Positions 16,159 to 22,924 are shown, numbered from the stretch's first letter. The stretch: 64,000 nt of DNA from Kiritimatiellia bacterium (GCA_017962315.1 JAGCVN010000118.1:492-64491), one strand, 5' to 3'. Numbers and translations: made by a program. The notes: a model not told the origin generated them from the sequence alone.

Positions 16159-18732
16159 TCAGCGATTGGCGAACTGAAGGGAGTCCGCACCTGCCGTCAC
16201 GGTGATCGGGCGGTCGCGGTGAAGCTCCCCCGAAAGCAGTTTCACGGAGAGGGCGTCAAGGACGAACTTGTTGATGGCGCGTTTGACCGGGCGGGCCCCG
16301 TATTCCGGCTCGTACCCATGTTCGGCAAGGAAATTCTCCGCCAAGGCATCGACCGAAAGATCCACCCCGTCAGTCTTCATTTTCGCCGTGAGCGAAGCCA
16401 GCTGGATTTGGACAATCCGGCGGATGTCCGCCTTTGAAAGCGGACGGAAGAGGATGGTCTCATCCAACCGGTTCAGGAATTCAGGCGAAACCCGGCTCCG
16501 CAGTTCCGCAAGGACGGCCGCTGTGACAACCGCCTCGTCCGACTCCAGCCCCCGCATGAAATACTCGTGGAGCTTCCTCTGCCCGATGTTCGAGGTGAGG
16601 ATGAGGATCGTGTTTTTAAAGTTGACGGTACGCCCCTGTCCGTCCGTCATGCGCCCGTCGTCAAGGATTTGGAGAAGCGTCTCGAAAACTTTCGGATGGG
16701 CTTTCTCGATTTCATCGAAAAGGATGACGCTGTAAGGTTTGCGTCGGACCGCTTCGGTGAGCTGTCCGCCCTGGTCGTAACCGACGTAGCCGGGAGGCGC
16801 GCCAAACAGGCGCGCGACGGTGTGTTCCTGCTGGTATTCGCTCATGTCGATACGGATCATCATATCGCGGCTGTCAAACAGGAACTCCGCAAGCGCCTTG
16901 CCAAGTTCGGTTTTACCGACACCCGTCGATCCGAGGAAGAGGAAGGAGCCGATCGGACGGGAAGGGTCGCCCAGTCCGAGGCGGTTGCGGCGCAGAACGG
17001 CGGCGACGGCGGCGACGGCGCGGTCCTGTCCGATGACGCGCCGGCGGAGTTCTTCCTCCGCATGGGCGAACCGCTGCGCCTCGTCGCTGCTCATCTTGCT
17101 GACGGGGATGCCGGTCCAGTCGGTGACGACCTGCATGATGTCGTTCTCGTCGAGCGCACGTTTCAGCATCGTCCCCTGCTCCTCCATCTCCACGACGACC
17201 TCGCCCGCCTGGCGTTCTGCATCCGCGGCCCGGCGGTCAAACGAAGCCGCCTCCTCGAAGCGGGAAGCCTGCTCCGCGTCGCGGGCGTTCACGCGGAAAC
17301 GCTCGGCCTCGTCCTGCAGGGACTGCAACCGCTCGAACAAGGCGCGTTCGTTCTGCCATTTGGCGTTGAGTTCGTTTTCCCGTTCACGGAGGTTGGCGAT
17401 CTCAAGGTCGAGCGGCTGAACGGCGGTTGAATCGGATCCGTCCTGAAGGATGCTTTCGCGCTCGATCTCTTTGCGGCGGATCGTGCGGGAAAGTTCGTCC
17501 AGTTCACGGGGGACAGAGGCGCGTTCGATACGCATACGGGAGGCGGCCTCGTCCAAGAGGTCGATGGCCTTGTCGGGCAGGAAACGGTCCGAGATGTACC
17601 GTTTCGAGAGACGGACGGCGGCGACGACGGCGGTGTCGAGGATCTTCGTGCGGTGGTGACTCTCGTATTGCGACTTGATCCCGCGTAGGATGGCGATCGC
17701 GGAATCGATATCAGGCTCATCGACTTCGACCTTCTGGAAACGGCGTTCAAAGGCGGGATCCTTCTCGATGTACTGGCGGTACTCGTCGTGTGTCGTCGCA
17801 CCGATGACCATCAGGCGTCCGCGCGCGAGTTCTGGCTTGAGAATGTTCGCCGCATCCATCGCGCCGGAGGAACGCCCCGCCCCGATCAGCTGGTGGATCT
17901 CATCGATAAACAGCACGATCGAAGGATCGGCAGAAGCCTCGTCGAGGACTTTTTTGAGCCGCTCCTCGAACTCACCCATGTGGCTGGCGCCGGCGACGAG
18001 CGCCGTGAGGTCGAGCGAATAGGGCTGAATACCCTTCATATCGACGGGAACGTCCCCTTTGAGGATCCGGTGGACAAGCCCTTCGACAATGGCGGTCTTG
18101 CCCGTTCCGGGTTCGCCGACAAGGACAGGGTTGTTCTTCGTCTTGCGGGAGAGAATCTGGAGAACACGCCGGATTTCGCGTTCGCGGCCGATGGCGGGAG
18201 AGATCGCCCCCTCGCGCGCAAGGGCGAGAAGGTTGCGCCCGTATTTGCAGAGCGAGGGATGACGGGAGGCGGAGGCATCCCCCGCCGTTTCAGGGTGTGC
18301 CCCCCGGAACGCCAGAACGGCCTCACGCAGTTTCTCCCGCGTGACGCCGGCCTGCGTGAACAAAGCCCGGACAGGATTCTCGATGACCGCGAGCGACCAG
18401 AAAAGATGTTCAGACGAGGCGACGGCGACATTCGTCTCGCGGGCGAGGGCGGCGGCCGCCATCCGGCAGGCGTCGAACGAAGCCGAGGGGACGGGTGAAC
18501 TGCCGGAACCTTTCGGAACCGCCTGAAGCATGGAGGAAACCGCGCCGAAAAACCGATTCTTGTCGATGCCCAGCTGATCAAAGAGGAATACCGCCATGTC
18601 GCGCGCCCGTTCCCAGAGCGCGACGACCAACACCGGCGTGGTGACTTCACCGTGCCCGGAATGGATTGCAATCTCCTGGGCGCGATCCAGCACGGCGACA
18701 GCTTTTTCAGTGAATACAGGTTGTTCAGCCAT
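16159..18732 (-). CDS. clpB: ATP-dependent chaperone / disaggregase ClpB
   Basis: Two AAA+ modules ([14 protein letters not shown] and [15 protein letters not shown]) with a long coiled-coil middle domain. Start is probably MAEQPVF at 18732; the track gives 18744. Confidence 0.92.
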
Positions 18733-18740
18733 AGGTACCC

Positions 18741-19016
18741 TCAATCCTTGCTTGATTTATAACCGATGATGGCGAGGACTAGCACGATCCAGAACCATTT
18801 TGAACCGAGTAACACGATGGCGATACTCTTCAAAAACCAGATAGCGGCCACTGCGACCACAACAAGGAGGCCACAACCGATAATCGTGTCGGAATCCCAT
18901 CCACTGCCGCCGGAAGACCGGCGGCGGGGGGACGACGGACGGCGGGAACGCCGGGACGCCCCCCTCTCCTCGACTTCTTCGAATTCCCCAGTTTGATCGT
19001 TGTACCGTAGTGCCAT
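18741..19016 (-). CDS. Small 91-aa membrane protein: MALRYNDQTGEFEE head, Arg/Ser-rich linker, two TM helices
   Basis: The stop is 9 nt upstream of the clpB ATG. The first 14 codons encode the same peptide as ORF 19222..19440, and every nucleotide difference there is synonymous. Confidence 0.7.
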   Translation of the reverse strand: MALRYNDQTGEFEEVEERGASRRSRRPSSPRRRSSGGSGWDSDTIIGCGLLVVVAVAAIWFLKSIAIVLLGSKWFWIVLVLAIIGYKSSKD

Positions 19017-19221
19017 CGAACACCTTCTTGAAAAGACTGCCGCGTTTCGCCTGCTGAACAGTCTATTCTATCCGATTCCGGCGCGTTTTCAAACAAAAAC
19101 ACGCATCCGCATGTGACCGCATCTGCGTGATCCACCTGTCAAACGCGATGCGGCGGCACCGGCAAGACCATTCTTCCCTCGTATATGTTCGGAGGACTCC
19201 CGCTTTCTCTGACAGGCCCGG

Positions 19222-19440
19222 TCAACCGTCCCCTTTTTTGAACAAACGGTGGAGAAGCGTATCCCCGGTTGCGACCAGGGCGACACACACGAGAACCTTG
19301 CCTACCTCGACGGCCACCTTGCCCCAGTCAACCGAAGAACGGGAGCGGGTACGGCCACGGGAGCGGGTACGGCTGCGGGATGAACCGCCGCCGCCCTCCT
19401 CTTCAAATTCCCCTGTTTGATCGTTATACCGTAGCGCCAT
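19222..19440 (-). CDS. Small 72-aa protein: MALRYNDQTGEFEE head, Gly then Arg/Ser-rich linker, one hydrophobic helix, ends ...KKGDG
   Basis: The ATG is 3 nt after the E1 stop. Paralogue of 18741..19016. Confidence 0.7.
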   Translation of the reverse strand: MALRYNDQTGEFEEEGGGGSSRSRTRSRGRTRSRSSVDWGKVAVEVGKVLVCVALVATGDTLLHRLFKKGDG

Positions 19441-19443
19441 CGA

Positions 19444-20694
19444 TCAGCCCCCCTGTCCGGCGACCTCATCGAGGTTGATACCCGACGTGTCGCCCATGTC
19501 TCCAAGACGGGATTCGATTTCGTCGCCCGTATCGAGTTCGGCATGGCCGCCGCAGACGGCGCACCCGTCGTTGCGGGCGATCCGCGCACCGTACCAGCGG
19601 AGGATCGTCGGTTTCGCCGCGGCGTTCGGGAAGGGCGCCCAGTTGGCGTGGCGGCGTTCCCGTCGGTTCGCCCACATGTAGTAGTCATAGACCAGCTCGT
19701 CTTCCAGCTGGGCGAGTCCGGTGTCCAGCCCGCGCGAAAGCTCGACGAGCGCAAGCTTGACCATGAGGTTGCAGATCGGTTCGATATCCGCCGAAAGCCC
19801 GACCTGCACCATCGCGGAAGCGTCCTCCGGCGAGACGTAGGCGGCGATGCGCCCCGAACGGCGGGCGGAGGCTTCGTCGGTGATCTCCTCGTCGCGGCTT
19901 TCAAACCAACCGTTCCCGATGAGGCAGTTGTAGCAGGGGCCGCCGGGACGGTAACGGAAGACGTCGCCGCCCTCCGCCCGCGTGACGGCCCTGCCGTACA
20001 GACAGGGCTTGGCGCGGCGGAGCAGCGCGTTCGTCAGGTTGAACCGGCTGGTGTTGTTGTCAGTCGCGCAGATCACGAGATCGGCGCGCGCGGTTTCACG
20101 GTCGAGAAGCACCGGCTCGCGGTTGATATCGACCGGGAAACGTTCGACTTCCGCATACGGGTTCTTCCCGAGGATCGCGTCGGCCACGGCGTCGGTCTTG
20201 AGCCGTCCGAGATCCTGCACCGAGCAGATGTGGCGAGAAAGGTTGTGCAACTCCATACGGTCGAAATCAAGCAGGGCGAACGCGCCGACGCCGGCTTTCG
20301 CCAGTTCGACGGCGATCTGTCCGCCGAAACTGCCCAGTCCGACGATCATGACGCGTTTCTGCGCGAGTGCGCCGACCTCCAGAATCCCTTTGCTACGGGA
20401 GAACAGTTCACTCCGTGACGGAATGAAGTTCAGCGGCAGTTCCTTTCCGTCGAGAAAGGCTGTCGCCTTCACGCCATCCCCTTCCCGTTCGTAACGGACG
20501 CAGAACCCCGCCGGGGGAAGTTCCCCCGTCCCGCCCCGGATGAAACGGCAAGGCGAAACCTTACCGTAGGCATGGCGGGGCGGGCGGGCGTGGAGGTGTA
20601 CGACCTCCTCCCCCTCCCACTCGCAGGCGACGCCGTCGGCGACGCCCGTATCGGGGAGGGTCATCAGTTCCTCTTTGTTCAGATAGACGATCAT
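19444..20694 (-). CDS. ThiF/E1-like adenylyltransferase with an N-terminal extension of about 95 aa
   Basis: Rossmann/ATP motif VMIVGLGSFGGQIAVELAKAGV, DFDRMELHNLSRH, and CxxC pairs (CYNC, CAVC). GGAAGGAG RBS. The ORF ends ...VAGQGG. Confidence 0.85.
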   Translation of the reverse strand: MIVYLNKEELMTLPDTGVADGVACEWEGEEVVHLHARPPRHAYGKVSPCRFIRGGTGELPPAGFCVRYEREGDGVKATAFLDGKELPLNFIPSRSELFSRSKGILEVGALAQKRVMIVGLGSFGGQIAVELAKAGVGAFALLDFDRMELHNLSRHICSVQDLGRLKTDAVADAILGKNPYAEVERFPVDINREPVLLDRETARADLVICATDNNTSRFNLTNALLRRAKPCLYGRAVTRAEGGDVFRYRPGGPCYNCLIGNGWFESRDEEITDEASARRSGRIAAYVSPEDASAMVQVGLSADIEPICNLMVKLALVELSRGLDTGLAQLEDELVYDYYMWANRRERRHANWAPFPNAAAKPTILRWYGARIARNDGCAVCGGHAELDTGDEIESRLGDMGDTSGINLDEVAGQGG

Positions 20695-20729
20695 TTCTGT
20701 CGCTCCTTCCGGGGAATAGACAGCCCCGC

Positions 20730-20924
20730 TTACGCGACTTCTTGCAACGCGAACCCCTCTTCGGTCATGCGCGTGACGACCTCGCCCTGGGCGGGCGATT
20801 CCGTCTTGTTGACCTGCTTGAACTCGCCGGTGACGGGATCATAGACCAGATCCGTCATCGTGTTCTCGCCAAGTCCCTGCTTGCGCACGTTCTCACTCAG
20901 GTTGTTCAATTCTCTCTCGTTCAT
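20730..20924 (-). CDS. Small 64-aa protein with an internal LVYDPVTGEFKQV motif
   Basis: Sits between the E2 and E1 genes with an AAAGGAA RBS. It shares Y-x-[DP]-x-T-G-E-F with the two MALRYNDQTGEFEE proteins. No C-terminal Gly. Confidence 0.6.
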   Translation of the reverse strand: MNERELNNLSENVRKQGLGENTMTDLVYDPVTGEFKQVNKTESPAQGEVVTRMTEEGFALQEVA

Positions 20925-20953
20925 GTTGTTTGTTCCTTTCTTGTTTTGTGCAA

Positions 20954-21382
20954 CTAATCCTGATGGTTGAGGTAGTAATCGATATCCTTCCCTGTACGCA
21001 GGTGTTGCTCATACATCTCGAGCCAGAGGCGGCTCTTGATGAAGACCTTGTAGATGGAGACCTCCGGATGCCATGAATCAAATCCGAAGTGGCAGATCCT
21101 TGTGCGCCCGTTCTCGCTGGTGAGGGTGTGCATTGTGGCGCTGCAGGAATCGAGGTCGTGCCCCCGCTTGTCTTTGAGCATCCGGGTGACGAACACCTTC
21201 GGGATGCTTTCGGGGAAATCATCCAGTTCGATCCGCAACGTGTAGACGTTGCCGCGGTTCGTGCGCGCGCCGAACACGACATAGGGCTCGTCCGTGTCCA
21301 GATCGAAAAAGCGGTAGAGATTGGGGGAAAGCTTGCGGCTGAGCACGCCGAGTTCAAGCTGGTAACGGTCATCTGTCATCAT
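20954..21382 (-). CDS. Prokaryotic E2 / UBC-like protein
   Basis: YTLRIELDDFPESIPKVFV (E2 flap motif) and MHTLTSENGRTRICHF (His...Cys active-site arrangement). The start overlaps the JAB stop (ATGATGA). Confidence 0.75.
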   Translation of the reverse strand: MMTDDRYQLELGVLSRKLSPNLYRFFDLDTDEPYVVFGARTNRGNVYTLRIELDDFPESIPKVFVTRMLKDKRGHDLDSCSATMHTLTSENGRTRICHFGFDSWHPEVSIYKVFIKSRLWLEMYEQHLRTGKDIDYYLNHQD

Positions 21383-22521
21383 GGATTGGATCCTCGTTTC
21401 GTCAGGTTTTTGTAAAAAGCGGTAAACGCGGGATAAATCTCACCCGTAAACACCCACTTCGGCGGGGCGGGCGGAACCCCGGCGGCGGGAAGGTGCGGTT
21501 GGTCCGCCCCTGCGGCGACCGCCGCGCAACGGCGCGCACGGTGAAGCAGGCGGACGCGGCGCGACCACTTCCGCTTGCCCTTCCGGTTCGCCAGCCGGTG
21601 CAGCCGCCGGACCTCGGATCTCGGGAGGCGGGCGTGTTCCGCGTTCCCGCCGGCGGATGCCGAGAGAGGATCCGGGGAACGCGGCGCGTCGGGCGGAAGC
21701 TCGACCACCGGGGCTTCGTAAGGGAACGCCTTCGGGAAATAGACATGCTCCACCCCGTAGCCGCGCCGGACGTTCACGTGGACGCACTTCTCCGCGTCGA
21801 GCTGGACGTTGACCCCCTCAGAGGGAGCGACGGCGGCAAGGTAATCGACAATCTGTTTCAAGACACGGTTGTTCGCCTTGTCGTTCAGCCAGTAATCCCC
21901 CCCGTAAACAGGCGTCGCCAGCCGTGCATCACCGGACGCGACGGCAAGCGGGGCCATGTGCGGGCGGGGCGTCCGGGGGACGGTCAACATCCGGCCCAGC
22001 TCCGGGTCCGTTTCGATCGCGGCACGGAAGGGGCTGACCATCGGCTTGACTTCCCAGCCCGCCTGTTTGTACTCGTACCCCGTTCGCTCGTGGAAGTTGA
22101 ACGCGTTGAACGTACTGGTTCGCCCGCCACAATTCCCGATACAGAGCAGGAAGCGCCCAAGGCCCTCCTTCGCGATGCTGTCCACCATCGTCTGCGCGTC
22201 GTGCCCGCTTGGCCTGGCAAGTCCGAGCTGGTGGTGGGAATGCCATTCGCCGATGTGGCGCAGGCCGTACCGGTGGATGAGGATGCCGCCGACGCGCACA
22301 AGGTAGTCGACATCCTGGTTGAAGAAAGTCACCTGGTGGTTTGCGCGCGGCCCCGGCCCGATCGCGAAGAGGACGACCGGCGTCCCTTCCGCCGTCCAAT
22401 AACCGAACAGTTGCCCGCCCGTTTCGATATTCGGGTAGTCTAAAATACACCGCGAAACAAAATCCAGCTCGCTTTGGTAAACTTGAACCGTAGACGACGG
22501 AACCTGATCATGTAAAGGCAT
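21379..22521 (-). CDS. JAB/JAMM metallopeptidase with a C-terminal extension of about 230 aa (second E2/UEV/RWD-like module plus an Arg-rich tail)
   Basis: IETGGQLFGYW and GEWHSHHQLGLARPSGHD form the JAMM motif. The C-terminal YFPKAFPYEAPVVELPP resembles the E2/RWD FP..YP..PP motif but has no obvious catalytic Cys. GGAG RBS. Confidence 0.8.
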   Translation of the reverse strand: MPLHDQVPSSTVQVYQSELDFVSRCILDYPNIETGGQLFGYWTAEGTPVVLFAIGPGPRANHQVTFFNQDVDYLVRVGGILIHRYGLRHIGEWHSHHQLGLARPSGHDAQTMVDSIAKEGLGRFLLCIGNCGGRTSTFNAFNFHERTGYEYKQAGWEVKPMVSPFRAAIETDPELGRMLTVPRTPRPHMAPLAVASGDARLATPVYGGDYWLNDKANNRVLKQIVDYLAAVAPSEGVNVQLDAEKCVHVNVRRGYGVEHVYFPKAFPYEAPVVELPPDAPRSPDPLSASAGGNAEHARLPRSEVRRLHRLANRKGKRKWSRRVRLLHRARRCAAVAAGADQPHLPAAGVPPAPPKWVFTGEIYPAFTAFYKNLTKRGSNP

Positions 22522-22672
22522 CTTGTATCACTCCAAACATTTCATTGCACCCAAAAGGATTTCCTTTGCCCTATTATTCTAGGGACCTCATCCCGTTTTC
22601 TAAAACAAAAGACTGTTTTCTTGGCAATTTTTTGGGATGCCCGGCTAACAACCAGCCAGACTCCCTCCGCCA

Positions 22673-22924
22673 CTACAGTCTCGCCTTCACAAAATCGCGC
22701 AACGCGGCGACGCTGAGGAAATTGCGGATGTTGAAATCGCGATCCTCAATCGTGATGCCGAAGGCCTCTTCCAGCCCGACCACGAGTTCCAGAAGACAGA
22801 CGGAATCCACTCCGTAGACGTCCACCAGCGAGGCGTCGGTGACAATCTCTTCCGGCTTCACGCTCAGGAAAAGCCGGTCAACGATCATTTCTTTCAGTTT
22901 GGATTCGATTTCCTGTTCACTCAT
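22673..22924 (-). CDS. Acyl carrier protein-like (phosphopantetheine-binding)
   Basis: 83 aa, acidic, with the VYGVDSVCLLELV Ser attachment motif. The ATG overlaps the stop of the MFS gene. Confidence 0.75.
   Translation of the reverse strand: MSEQEIESKLKEMIVDRLFLSVKPEEIVTDASLVDVYGVDSVCLLELVVGLEEAFGITIEDRDFNIRNFLSVAALRDFVKARL

Follow-up and report, generated by a model that had tools for sequence, protein, structure and literature searches.

We have found, in a 64,000-nucleotide stretch of DNA from Kiritimatiellia bacterium (GCA_017962315.1, JAGCVN010000118.1:492-64491; hereafter the window), a gene cluster encoding a ThiF-type E1, a stand-alone E2 of the ubiquitin-conjugating (UBC) fold and a JAB/JAMM metallopeptidase (JAB), together with a 64-aa protein (SM), two small membrane proteins with an N-terminal Thr-Gly-Glu-Phe (TGEF) tag and a ClpB-like unfoldase. 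We favour, with a probability of about 0.6, the reading that this is a conjugation module of the Cap2/Cap3 lineage in which SM is a mini-modifier without the beta-grasp fold, and we infer the steps of its reaction from the evidence below. The module is a new family within the bacterial ubiquitination-like systems, with a mini-modifier, a linear N-terminal tag and a dedicated ClpB. To our knowledge, every dedicated modifier activated by E1 and E2 enzymes is a beta-grasp protein; the exception is the CD-NTase (cGAS/DncV-like nucleotidyltransferase) of CBASS (cyclic oligonucleotide-based antiphage signalling system), an enzyme that becomes a tag. A non-beta-grasp substrate of an E1 thus has a precedent, since the CD-NTase of the CBASS lineage is already one.

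The cluster lies at 16159-22521 on the minus strand, where calling of open reading frames (ORFs) in the window gave eight tightly packed genes. Seven are named here, listed with the promoter-like and terminator-like sites and a 205-bp gap between the genes of the 72-aa (T72) and 91-aa (T91) tagged proteins:

22573-22604, minus strand: promoter-like site upstream of the JAB gene, probable operon start (consensus scan, weak evidence)
21379-22521, minus strand: JAB/JAMM metallopeptidase, 380 aa (ORF and hidden Markov model matches)
20954-21382, minus strand: stand-alone UBC-fold E2, 142 aa (AlphaFold2 and Foldseek)
20730-20924, minus strand: SM, putative modifier precursor, 64 aa (ORF and conserved position)
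19444-20694, minus strand: ThiF-type E1, 416 aa (Pfam, PADLOC and Foldseek)
19222-19440, minus strand: T72, tagged membrane protein, 72 aa (ORF and sequence)
19065-19114, minus strand: terminator-like hairpin followed by a promoter-like site, between T72 and T91 (consensus scan only)
18741-19016, minus strand: T91, tagged membrane protein, 91 aa, paralog of T72 (ORF and hydropathy)
16159-18744, minus strand: ClpB-like two-ring AAA+ unfoldase (Pfam and TIGR03346)

An earlier, sequence-only reading of this DNA had described five minus-strand ORFs (JAB, E2, the 64-aa ORF, E1 and the 72-aa ORF), and all five were found at the coordinates it gave. The junctions were also as described, with the JAB stop and the E2 start sharing ATGA and 3 nt between the E1 stop and the ATG of the 72-aa ORF, and so were the motifs (EWHSHHQLGLARPSGHD, FPESIPKVFV...TRICH, GLGSFGG, two CxxC pairs, LVYDPVTGEFKQV and MALRYNDQTGEFEE). 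The five-gene cluster of that reading was incomplete, as T91 and ClpB, whose ORF start overlaps the T91 stop, had been overlooked. The ORFs of the cluster are more than chance, because the order of E2, the 64-aa gene and E1 is kept in ~33 independent genome loci, because all three occurrences of the strict TGEF core in coding context in the 64-kb window lie inside the cluster, and because a scan for the tag, described below, linked it to the E1 family. Chance ORFs were rejected on the conserved order and on that linkage.

The assignments of the three enzymes hold, with E1 matching ThiF at 2.4e-30 in Pfam, E2 showing the UBC fold in Foldseek and JAB matching JAB models at 3e-12. The AlphaFold2 model of E2 has a predicted local distance difference test score (pLDDT) of 92.4 and a predicted template modelling (TM) score of 0.87. 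Its top 11 Foldseek matches in the PDB are all UBC-fold proteins (probability 0.77-0.99, TM-score ~0.5), at E-values that are weak, 1.6e-2 at best. Nine of them are canonical E2s (Ube2K, UbcH5c, UBE2L6, Ubc13, UbcH7 and others), and the others are the ubiquitin E2 variant (UEV) Mms2 and the E2-like domain of FANCL. The E2 was identified through fold comparison only, because its sequence profile matched no PDB sequence and no Pfam family; the CBASS E2 models of PADLOC match it weakly (0.005). An alignment of 24 E2s shows no change at Cys97 (in TRICH) or at His85, and on its modelled UBC fold, with the active-site Cys after the beta-meander, we consider that the window E2 belongs to the UBC/E2 superfamily. 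We recovered 257 homologs; those listed (120) have lengths of 140-144 aa and identities of 58-91% to the window protein. In every locus the E2 gene is separate from that of E1.

The E1 consists of an N-terminal domain (NTD, residues 1 to ~105) and one adenylation domain of the ThiF/MoeB type, which carries GxGxxG and two CxxC zinc pairs. It matches the Cap2 E1-E2 model of PADLOC (PDLC00829) at 6.4e-32. In Foldseek, the model of an E1 homolog matched BubCD at the top, ThiF, Uba4, Cap2, UBA5 and MccB, and the best structural matches are the homodimeric enzymes ThiF, MoeB, Uba4, BubCD and Cap2. The NTD (20380-20694, minus strand) is beta-rich, was modelled in a homolog at pLDDT >90 and has an invariant W-E-x-E...H...H-x-[YF]-G pattern; with no Pfam family or PDB match, we regard it as a novel domain. 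In an insertion of the crossover loop after the first CxxC (19700-19900, minus strand; ...RIAAYVSPEDA...), which is poorly modelled, a Tyr and a Ser (AAYVS) are invariant. The Tyr may be compared with BubCD, the top structural match, which uses a Tyr oxyester.

The N-terminal domain of JAB is Cap3-like, with a Glu in NIETGG and the HSHH...S..D pattern, and matches the Cap3-type JAB models of PADLOC at 3.4e-12 and Pfam Prok-JAB at 2e-4. JAB is conserved in 35 loci. Its C-terminal domain of ~100 aa has a pattern like that of UEV, RWD and E2 domains, with a YWLNDKANN helix, an FPxExP flap and no Cys. Among 27 sub-threshold PDB matches of its profile, 20 are E2 or UEV proteins, dominated by the VPS37A UEV and E2s, and the match to the E2 profile by hhalign is weak; these results do no more than suggest an E2-like domain. 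In the window genome, an Arg/Ala/Pro-rich insertion of ~70 aa (...RSEVRRLHRLANRKGKRKWSRRVRLLHRARR...; JAB residues ~205-380, 21379-21900, minus strand) splits this C-terminal domain. The JABs of loci L003 and L005 also bear N-terminal transmembrane helices.

In nearly all loci, the candidate modifier SM is encoded between E2 and E1 or joined to the N-terminus of E1. A homology search with the 64-aa protein, limited by its word index, returned four near-identical proteins; the family was instead rebuilt from ORFs at loci found with the E2 profile. The window SM begins with a helix, which is followed by the hairpin LVYDPVTGEFKQV, a polar linker and the segment VVTRMTEEGFA; the last five residues, LQEVA, are predicted to be trimmed. 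The family shares this layout: a helix (...L..[LM][AG]E.[VI]R.QG), a polar linker, M-x-[DE]-L-V-[YF]-[ND]-x-x-T-G-E-F, a variable polar loop and V-T-x-M-T-x-x-G-F-A. Across 26 diverse sequences, L26, G33, F35, T51, G57 and A59 never vary, and F58 is retained in >90%. What follows GFA differs between loci. In nine listed loci the gene stops there (in one case as GYA), in 11 there are 1-6 further, non-conserved residues, as with LQEVA in the window, and in 11 SM runs in frame into the first strand of E1. The fusion was also found in P0229 and in the commonest variant of human-gut metagenomes. Because the invariant GF-A end is followed by a stop, a variable tail or an E1 fusion, we consider that it bears the signature of a processed modifier precursor, with a mature form of ~59 aa.

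Mature SM would be ~56-66 aa long across the family, of which ~20 form the N-terminal helix. In the AlphaFold2 model of a natural SM-E1 fusion, the SM part shows a helix at residues 7-16, a hairpin at 28-43 and coil at 44-65, at pLDDT 36-65; it was modelled without alignment depth, MAFFT having aligned free SM within the E1 domain. The SM profile matched no ubiquitin-like protein (Ubl) among PDB sequences or in Pfam. The exhaustive search of representatives used a profile of SM and the fused P0229, in which weighting turned the 464-residue fusion into the profile, and its output mostly describes E1 relatives. Because SM is too short, its profile is without a Ubl match and its model consists of helix, hairpin and coil, we consider that it has no recognisable beta-grasp fold. 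The sequence-only reading had seen neither a beta-grasp Ubl nor a CD-NTase, and this was borne out, as Pfam-type searches of the cluster and flanking proteins found no gene for either. A hidden Ubl or CD-NTase was rejected on the lack of a match in the cluster, the flanks and the gene families shared between loci.

Some observations concern the origin of SM and its copies. A Met is conserved five residues before the aromatic residue of the SM hairpin (M-[TK]-[DE]-L-V-[YF]-[ND]), and, read from this Met, the SM sequence is similar to the beginning of tag proteins. SM may descend from such a protein, or its translation may start internally. Some loci have extra small ORFs with the hairpin between E2 and SM, a second SM-like gene in L008 among them, and in one tag protein two hairpins follow each other, MGYIYDNETGEF...GGYVYDDETGEF (L008, 3027-3200; L017, 10447-10734; L019, 10447-10788; L013, 11950-12237).

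The hairpin [YF]-[ND]-x-x-T-G-E-F, internal in SM, stands at the extreme N-terminus of further operon-encoded proteins, most of them small and tail-anchored in the membrane, as T72 and T91 are. T72 has the N-terminal tag MALRYNDQTGEFEE, a Gly/Arg/Ser-rich linker and a single C-terminal hydrophobic helix, and T91 carries the tag MALRYNDQTGEFEEVEE in front of a linker rich in Arg, Ser and Pro and a pair of hydrophobic helices. Both begin with MALRYNDQTGEFEE, with the tag peptide written as MALRYNDQTGEFEEV, and over their first 14 codons they differ at five synonymous and no non-synonymous positions. The T91 ortholog in L007 is 65% identical. The motif that the sequence-only reading had seen in both small ORFs is indeed shared, but the two proteins differ in kind: the candidate modifier is the 64-aa protein, and the 72-aa protein belongs, with T91, to the tagged membrane proteins.

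From 49 distinct tags, the consensus is M-A-[YL]-[RK]-Y-N-E-[KR]-T-G-E-F-E-[ED]. The tag proteins sit directly after E1 or after ClpB; a first scan placed homologs of T72 directly after E1 in 23 genome loci, to which L023 and L032, with variant cores, are added. When metagenomes were scanned for DNA encoding MAxxY[ND]xxTGEFE, blind to the enzymes, 44 loci were found, and in 41 of them a member of the E1 family adjoins the tag. Therefore, the tag is specific to the E1/E2/JAB/SM module. The cargo behind the tag is mostly a low-complexity Ser/Thr/Arg/Pro linker with 1-3 C-terminal hydrophobic helices, in proteins of 43-127 aa. Other cargo includes an acyl carrier protein (ACP) in L005, a transmembrane segment with a DnaJ-type zinc finger in L024, immunoglobulin-like proteins of ~340 aa in L008 and L011 and a 563-aa protein in L023; in L032 three consecutive genes are tagged, with TGNF as the core. 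In L005 (10970-11269) and L006, E1 and ClpB are separated by the gene of an ACP whose N-terminus bears the TGEF tag (MIRFNERTGEFEE...).

The NTD of E1 is the likeliest reader of the tag. The E1 lacks this domain in five loci (L015, L018, L027, L034 and L035); L027 is cut by the contig end, and three of the other four have no tag gene, although all four keep the SM hairpin. We favour the NTD because the loci lacking it are mostly without tag genes, a weak correlation among phylogenetically clustered cases. ClpB as the only reader was rejected, as tags also occur in loci without ClpB.

The ClpB-like protein of the window carries the Pfam domains Clp_N, AAA, AAA_lid_9, AAA_2 and ClpB_D2-small, and its N-domain, M-domain and D2 pore loop (GYVGY) are intact. 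Its ORF starts with TTG at 18744, and the probable start is the ATG at 18732. The canonical ClpB of E. coli has the D1 pore-loop motif KYRGEFE, in which the triplet KYR contains an aromatic Tyr. In the window the triplet before GEFEER, near residue 250, is SHM, and SHM, SQH, QMQ, SMQ or SAH stands there in all 17 linked ClpBs that could be read (16 distinct loci and the window). Against TIGR03346, the window protein scores 1017.7 bits, under the equivalog cutoff of 1232.1, so that it departs from canonical ClpB in both score and pore loop. ClpB follows E1 or the tag genes in 21 of the 35 loci. On the score and the altered loop, a housekeeping ClpB beside the cluster by coincidence was rejected, and we regard the linked ClpB as a specialised paralog rather than the canonical chaperone. 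The GEFEE of ClpB resembles the tag core TGEFEE, a likeness that is probably coincidence.

A scan of one genome per species (185,579 species) with the E2 profile gave 32 loci with the module, in Kiritimatiellae, many Bacteroidales (Prevotella, Segatella copri, Muribaculaceae and Paludibacteraceae), Fibrobacter and Flexilinea. The module is thus known from ~33 genomes of four phyla, whose named sources are gut or rumen samples; taxa that are abundant in the human gut and the rumen carry it, among them a cultured isolate of Segatella copri (OF03-3, locus L024). The SM and E1 proteins of the window are 100% identical to proteins of a Kiritimatiellae metagenome-assembled genome. The gene order JAB-E2-SM-E1 is invariant in the loci compared. 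Identity of E2 to the window protein is 43-67% outside the close relative L007 (91%), and these identities and the patchy distribution across phyla indicate horizontal spread among gut and rumen bacteria. By a test that the sequence-only reading had itself set, small TGEF proteins should accompany homologous E1, E2 and JAB genes. This co-occurrence holds across phyla and, together with the enzyme assignments, supports the interpretation.

As regards the setting of the cluster, the promoter-like site upstream of JAB lies within a 150-bp, AT-richer gap after an untagged ACP gene (22673-22924, minus strand) and marks the probable operon start. The terminator-like and promoter-like pair in the gap between T72 and T91 may mark an internal boundary between transcription units. 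The flanks encode this ACP, a major facilitator superfamily (MFS) transporter, a haloacid dehalogenase (HAD) hydrolase, CysK and a DUF3034 protein. Elsewhere, genes for a WYL-domain regulator and a Cys-rich protein of 150 aa are found upstream of JAB in a few loci (L001, 5170-6216, and L038). L001 adjoins genes for Rep3, ParA and a primase and is probably on a plasmid, and a transposase adjoins L003. Occasional neighbours are M48 and HExxH peptidases and tetratricopeptide-repeat (TPR) and Sel1-like proteins. A 266-aa HEMLH (HExxH) protein follows E1 in L003 (9955-10755) and L005 (9908-10708), and M48 peptidase genes lie upstream in the same loci (L003, 2183-3391; L005, 572-3126); these may be extra proteases in some variants.

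In the favoured reading, JAB would trim the variable residues past the invariant ...GFA, or free SM from E1 in the fusions, and leave a C-terminal Ala. E1 would then adenylate the carboxylate of this Ala, in the way that Cap2 acts on the disordered cGAS tail. SM would pass to Cys97 of E2 and on to amino groups of targets, and JAB could reverse the conjugation. We expect that the TGEF hairpin is a docking element for the machinery, common to SM and the tagged partners. The tagged membrane proteins may be dedicated substrates or membrane receptors, possibly effectors, and ClpB with its altered D1 loop most likely unfolds, extracts or disassembles proteins that are marked with SM or bear the tag. 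The biological role is probably defence against phages or mobile elements, or a response to membrane stress, acting through the small membrane proteins, because the enzymes are homologous to those of CBASS, the distribution is patchy and mobile, and WYL and plasmid genes are among the neighbours.

Several points weigh against this reading. The E1 has no obvious catalytic Cys beyond its zinc CxxC pairs, and the SM hairpin is retained where E1 lacks the NTD. The SM model is of low confidence (pLDDT 36-65, from effectively a single sequence), and SM may fold only on binding. About a third of the loci encode SM as part of E1, of which it could be a permanent subunit, and cleavage could take place after Gly57 instead of giving a product that ends in Ala59. 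ClpB is absent from about a third of the loci. The module is absent from phage records and viral contigs and, as a system, from PADLOC, and its conservation is unusually high for a defence system, with E2 ~60-65% identical across phyla.

A more specific form of the favoured reading, in which a largely disordered non-beta-grasp modifier of ~59 aa enters an E1-E2 thioester cascade through its C-terminal Ala, the N-terminal hairpin (M-A-x-x-Y-N-x-x-T-G-E-F-E) designates membrane proteins as dedicated substrates or receptors, and ClpB reads this hairpin and extracts or unfolds the marked proteins, is put forward tentatively, as a proposal that we would not yet expect to hold. The module would then be a bacterial counterpart, made of different parts, to ubiquitin with Cdc48 or Pup with Mpa. 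If true, this would be the first non-beta-grasp protein tag activated by E1 and E2 with a degron-like code of its own.

Among the alternatives, the one that best survives takes SM as a non-catalytic subunit or N-terminal extension of E1, with the true substrate elsewhere, such as the tail of a host or phage protein or the C-terminus of a tagged protein (...KKGDG in T72). It draws on the in-frame fusions, seen in 11 of ~33 genome loci and in the variant most common in human-gut metagenomes, and on the E1 of a Bradyrhizobium CBASS operon (L039, below), whose extension has a helix and an LVYD-like segment and whose substrate is presumably the CD-NTase. However, the invariant Gly and Ala of the GF-A end, with Phe in >90%, followed by nothing, a variable tail or E1, are typical of a processed precursor, and the C-termini of the tagged proteins, among which such a substrate would be sought, are not conserved. 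We consider this alternative unlikely.

A very improbable alternative is a system for a ribosomally synthesised and post-translationally modified peptide (RiPP), like microcin C, in which SM would be the precursor, an MccB-like E1 the modifying enzyme, JAB the leader peptidase and the MFS protein the exporter. E1 does match MccB and PaaA in sequence and fold, SM is of precursor size with a conserved C-terminal core, and the MFS transporter and ACP genes lie directly upstream in the window. But ThiF, MoeB, Cap2 and BubCD match E1 as well as MccB or better, neither the MFS nor the ACP gene is a conserved neighbour elsewhere, and every locus has a UBC-fold E2 with an invariant Cys, which is without a role in RiPP chemistry. 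The SM-E1 fusions and the tagged membrane proteins would also be left unexplained.

That this is an ordinary Bil- or CBASS-like system, whose Ubl or CD-NTase was missed or whose 64-aa ORF is a small beta-grasp protein, is suggested by the Bil-like order of E2, small ORF and E1 with JAB and by the homology of the enzymes to Cap2 and Cap3, but it has scarcely any credit left, as mature SM is too small beside its ~20-aa helix, with one predicted hairpin and coil, its profile has no Ubl match and ends in GFA instead of Gly, and no SMODS or Ubl gene is found in the window flanks or among the gene families shared by at least three of the 35 loci.

If the favoured reading is true, E1/E2 chemistry can do without the beta-grasp fold, and the module may be an evolutionary intermediate between substrates that are tails of enzymes and dedicated modifiers. 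The TGEF tag is a simple linear signal that can be searched for and that links diverse cargo to the machinery, making recognition without an E3 directly testable. Its occurrence in gut and rumen bacteria gives the module possible relevance to the dynamics of phages and mobile elements, or to envelope stress, in the microbiome.

The operon architecture is not described in the literature searched and lies outside types 6a-6e of Iyer et al. 2006. By analogy only, the module resembles Pup with Mpa/ARC and ubiquitin with Cdc48/p97, in which a modifier is coupled to a dedicated double-ring or AAA+ unfoldase. Pup is also 64 aa long and largely disordered. On the other hand, Pup has no sequence similarity to SM and is ligated by the glutamine-synthetase-like PafA, not by E1 and E2, and a coupling of SM to ClpB is suggested by gene linkage only. 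MccB with MccA is similar in that a homodimeric ThiF-type E1 with an extra NTD has as its substrate the C-terminus of a short ribosomal peptide; however, it involves no E2 or JAB, and its product is an antibiotic rather than a protein conjugate.

The Bub systems (type 6E/DUF6527) share with the module BubCD as the top structural match of E1, an association with WYL regulators and natural fusions of modifier and enzyme; BubCD, itself a fusion of JAB and E1, cleaves the Ubl-E2 fusion BubAB (PMC11601596). Unlike the module, they use Ser/Tyr oxyester intermediates, beta-grasp Ubls and the DUF6527 serine protease BubE. No Pfam DUF6527 match was found in the cluster, and the window E2 is not one without a catalytic Cys, as Cys97 is invariant. 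The Bil systems (BilABCD; types 6C/6D of Iyer et al. 2006) have separate genes for modifier, E2 (stand-alone, with a Cys), JAB (also stand-alone) and E1, as here, and no E3, and their precursor likewise extends past the conserved motif, by up to nine non-conserved residues after the Gly in type II BilA (PMC10557695). They differ in the beta-grasp BilA that ends in Gly, where SM ends in GFA, in the multidomain BilD with inactive adenylation, active adenylation and mobile Cys domains, where the window E1 has a single adenylation domain, and in having neither TGEF tags nor ClpB.

The closest likeness is to type II CBASS. E1 and JAB are homologous to Cap2 and Cap3, which are their best matches among the defence models, and there too the E1 substrate is a disordered tail rather than a beta-grasp protein. 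For Cap2, the site of adenylation is the very C-terminus of cGAS, which is disordered (10.1101/2022.03.31.486616), and the CD-NTases of type II CBASS have a conserved C-terminal Gly or Ala (PMC10449767). The CD-NTase of the Bradyrhizobium operon below ends in ...FGA, to compare with ...GFA here. In contrast, the module has no CD-NTase (SMODS) in the cluster, its flanks or the conserved neighbours of the 35 loci, and no cyclic-nucleotide effector (SAVED, Cap4 or TIR) in the window cluster. Its E2 and E1 are separate rather than one fused polypeptide, its substrate is ~59 aa, and it adds the novel E1 NTD, the UEV-like C-terminus of JAB, the tagged membrane proteins and the ClpB paralog. A tblastn search of plasmids gave as the nearest annotated relative an operon of Bradyrhizobium barranii plasmid pBb323S2b (L039, 249799-256169), whose E2 is 34% identical. 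Its order is JAB (346 aa), E2 (155 aa), E1 (483 aa), a frameshifted SMODS CD-NTase ending in ...STFGA, Cap4/SAVED and TIR, and we regard it as a type II CBASS with a split Cap2. Besides the N-terminal extension of its E1, its JAB shares the extra C-terminal domain. A remnant JAB and E2 followed by an IS630 insertion lie on pREB3 of Acaryochloris marina (L040). The module appears to have branched off from the Cap2/Cap3 lineage of type II CBASS: the CD-NTase would have given way to a tail protein that stands free, and tag proteins and ClpB would have taken the place of the genes for nucleotide signalling.

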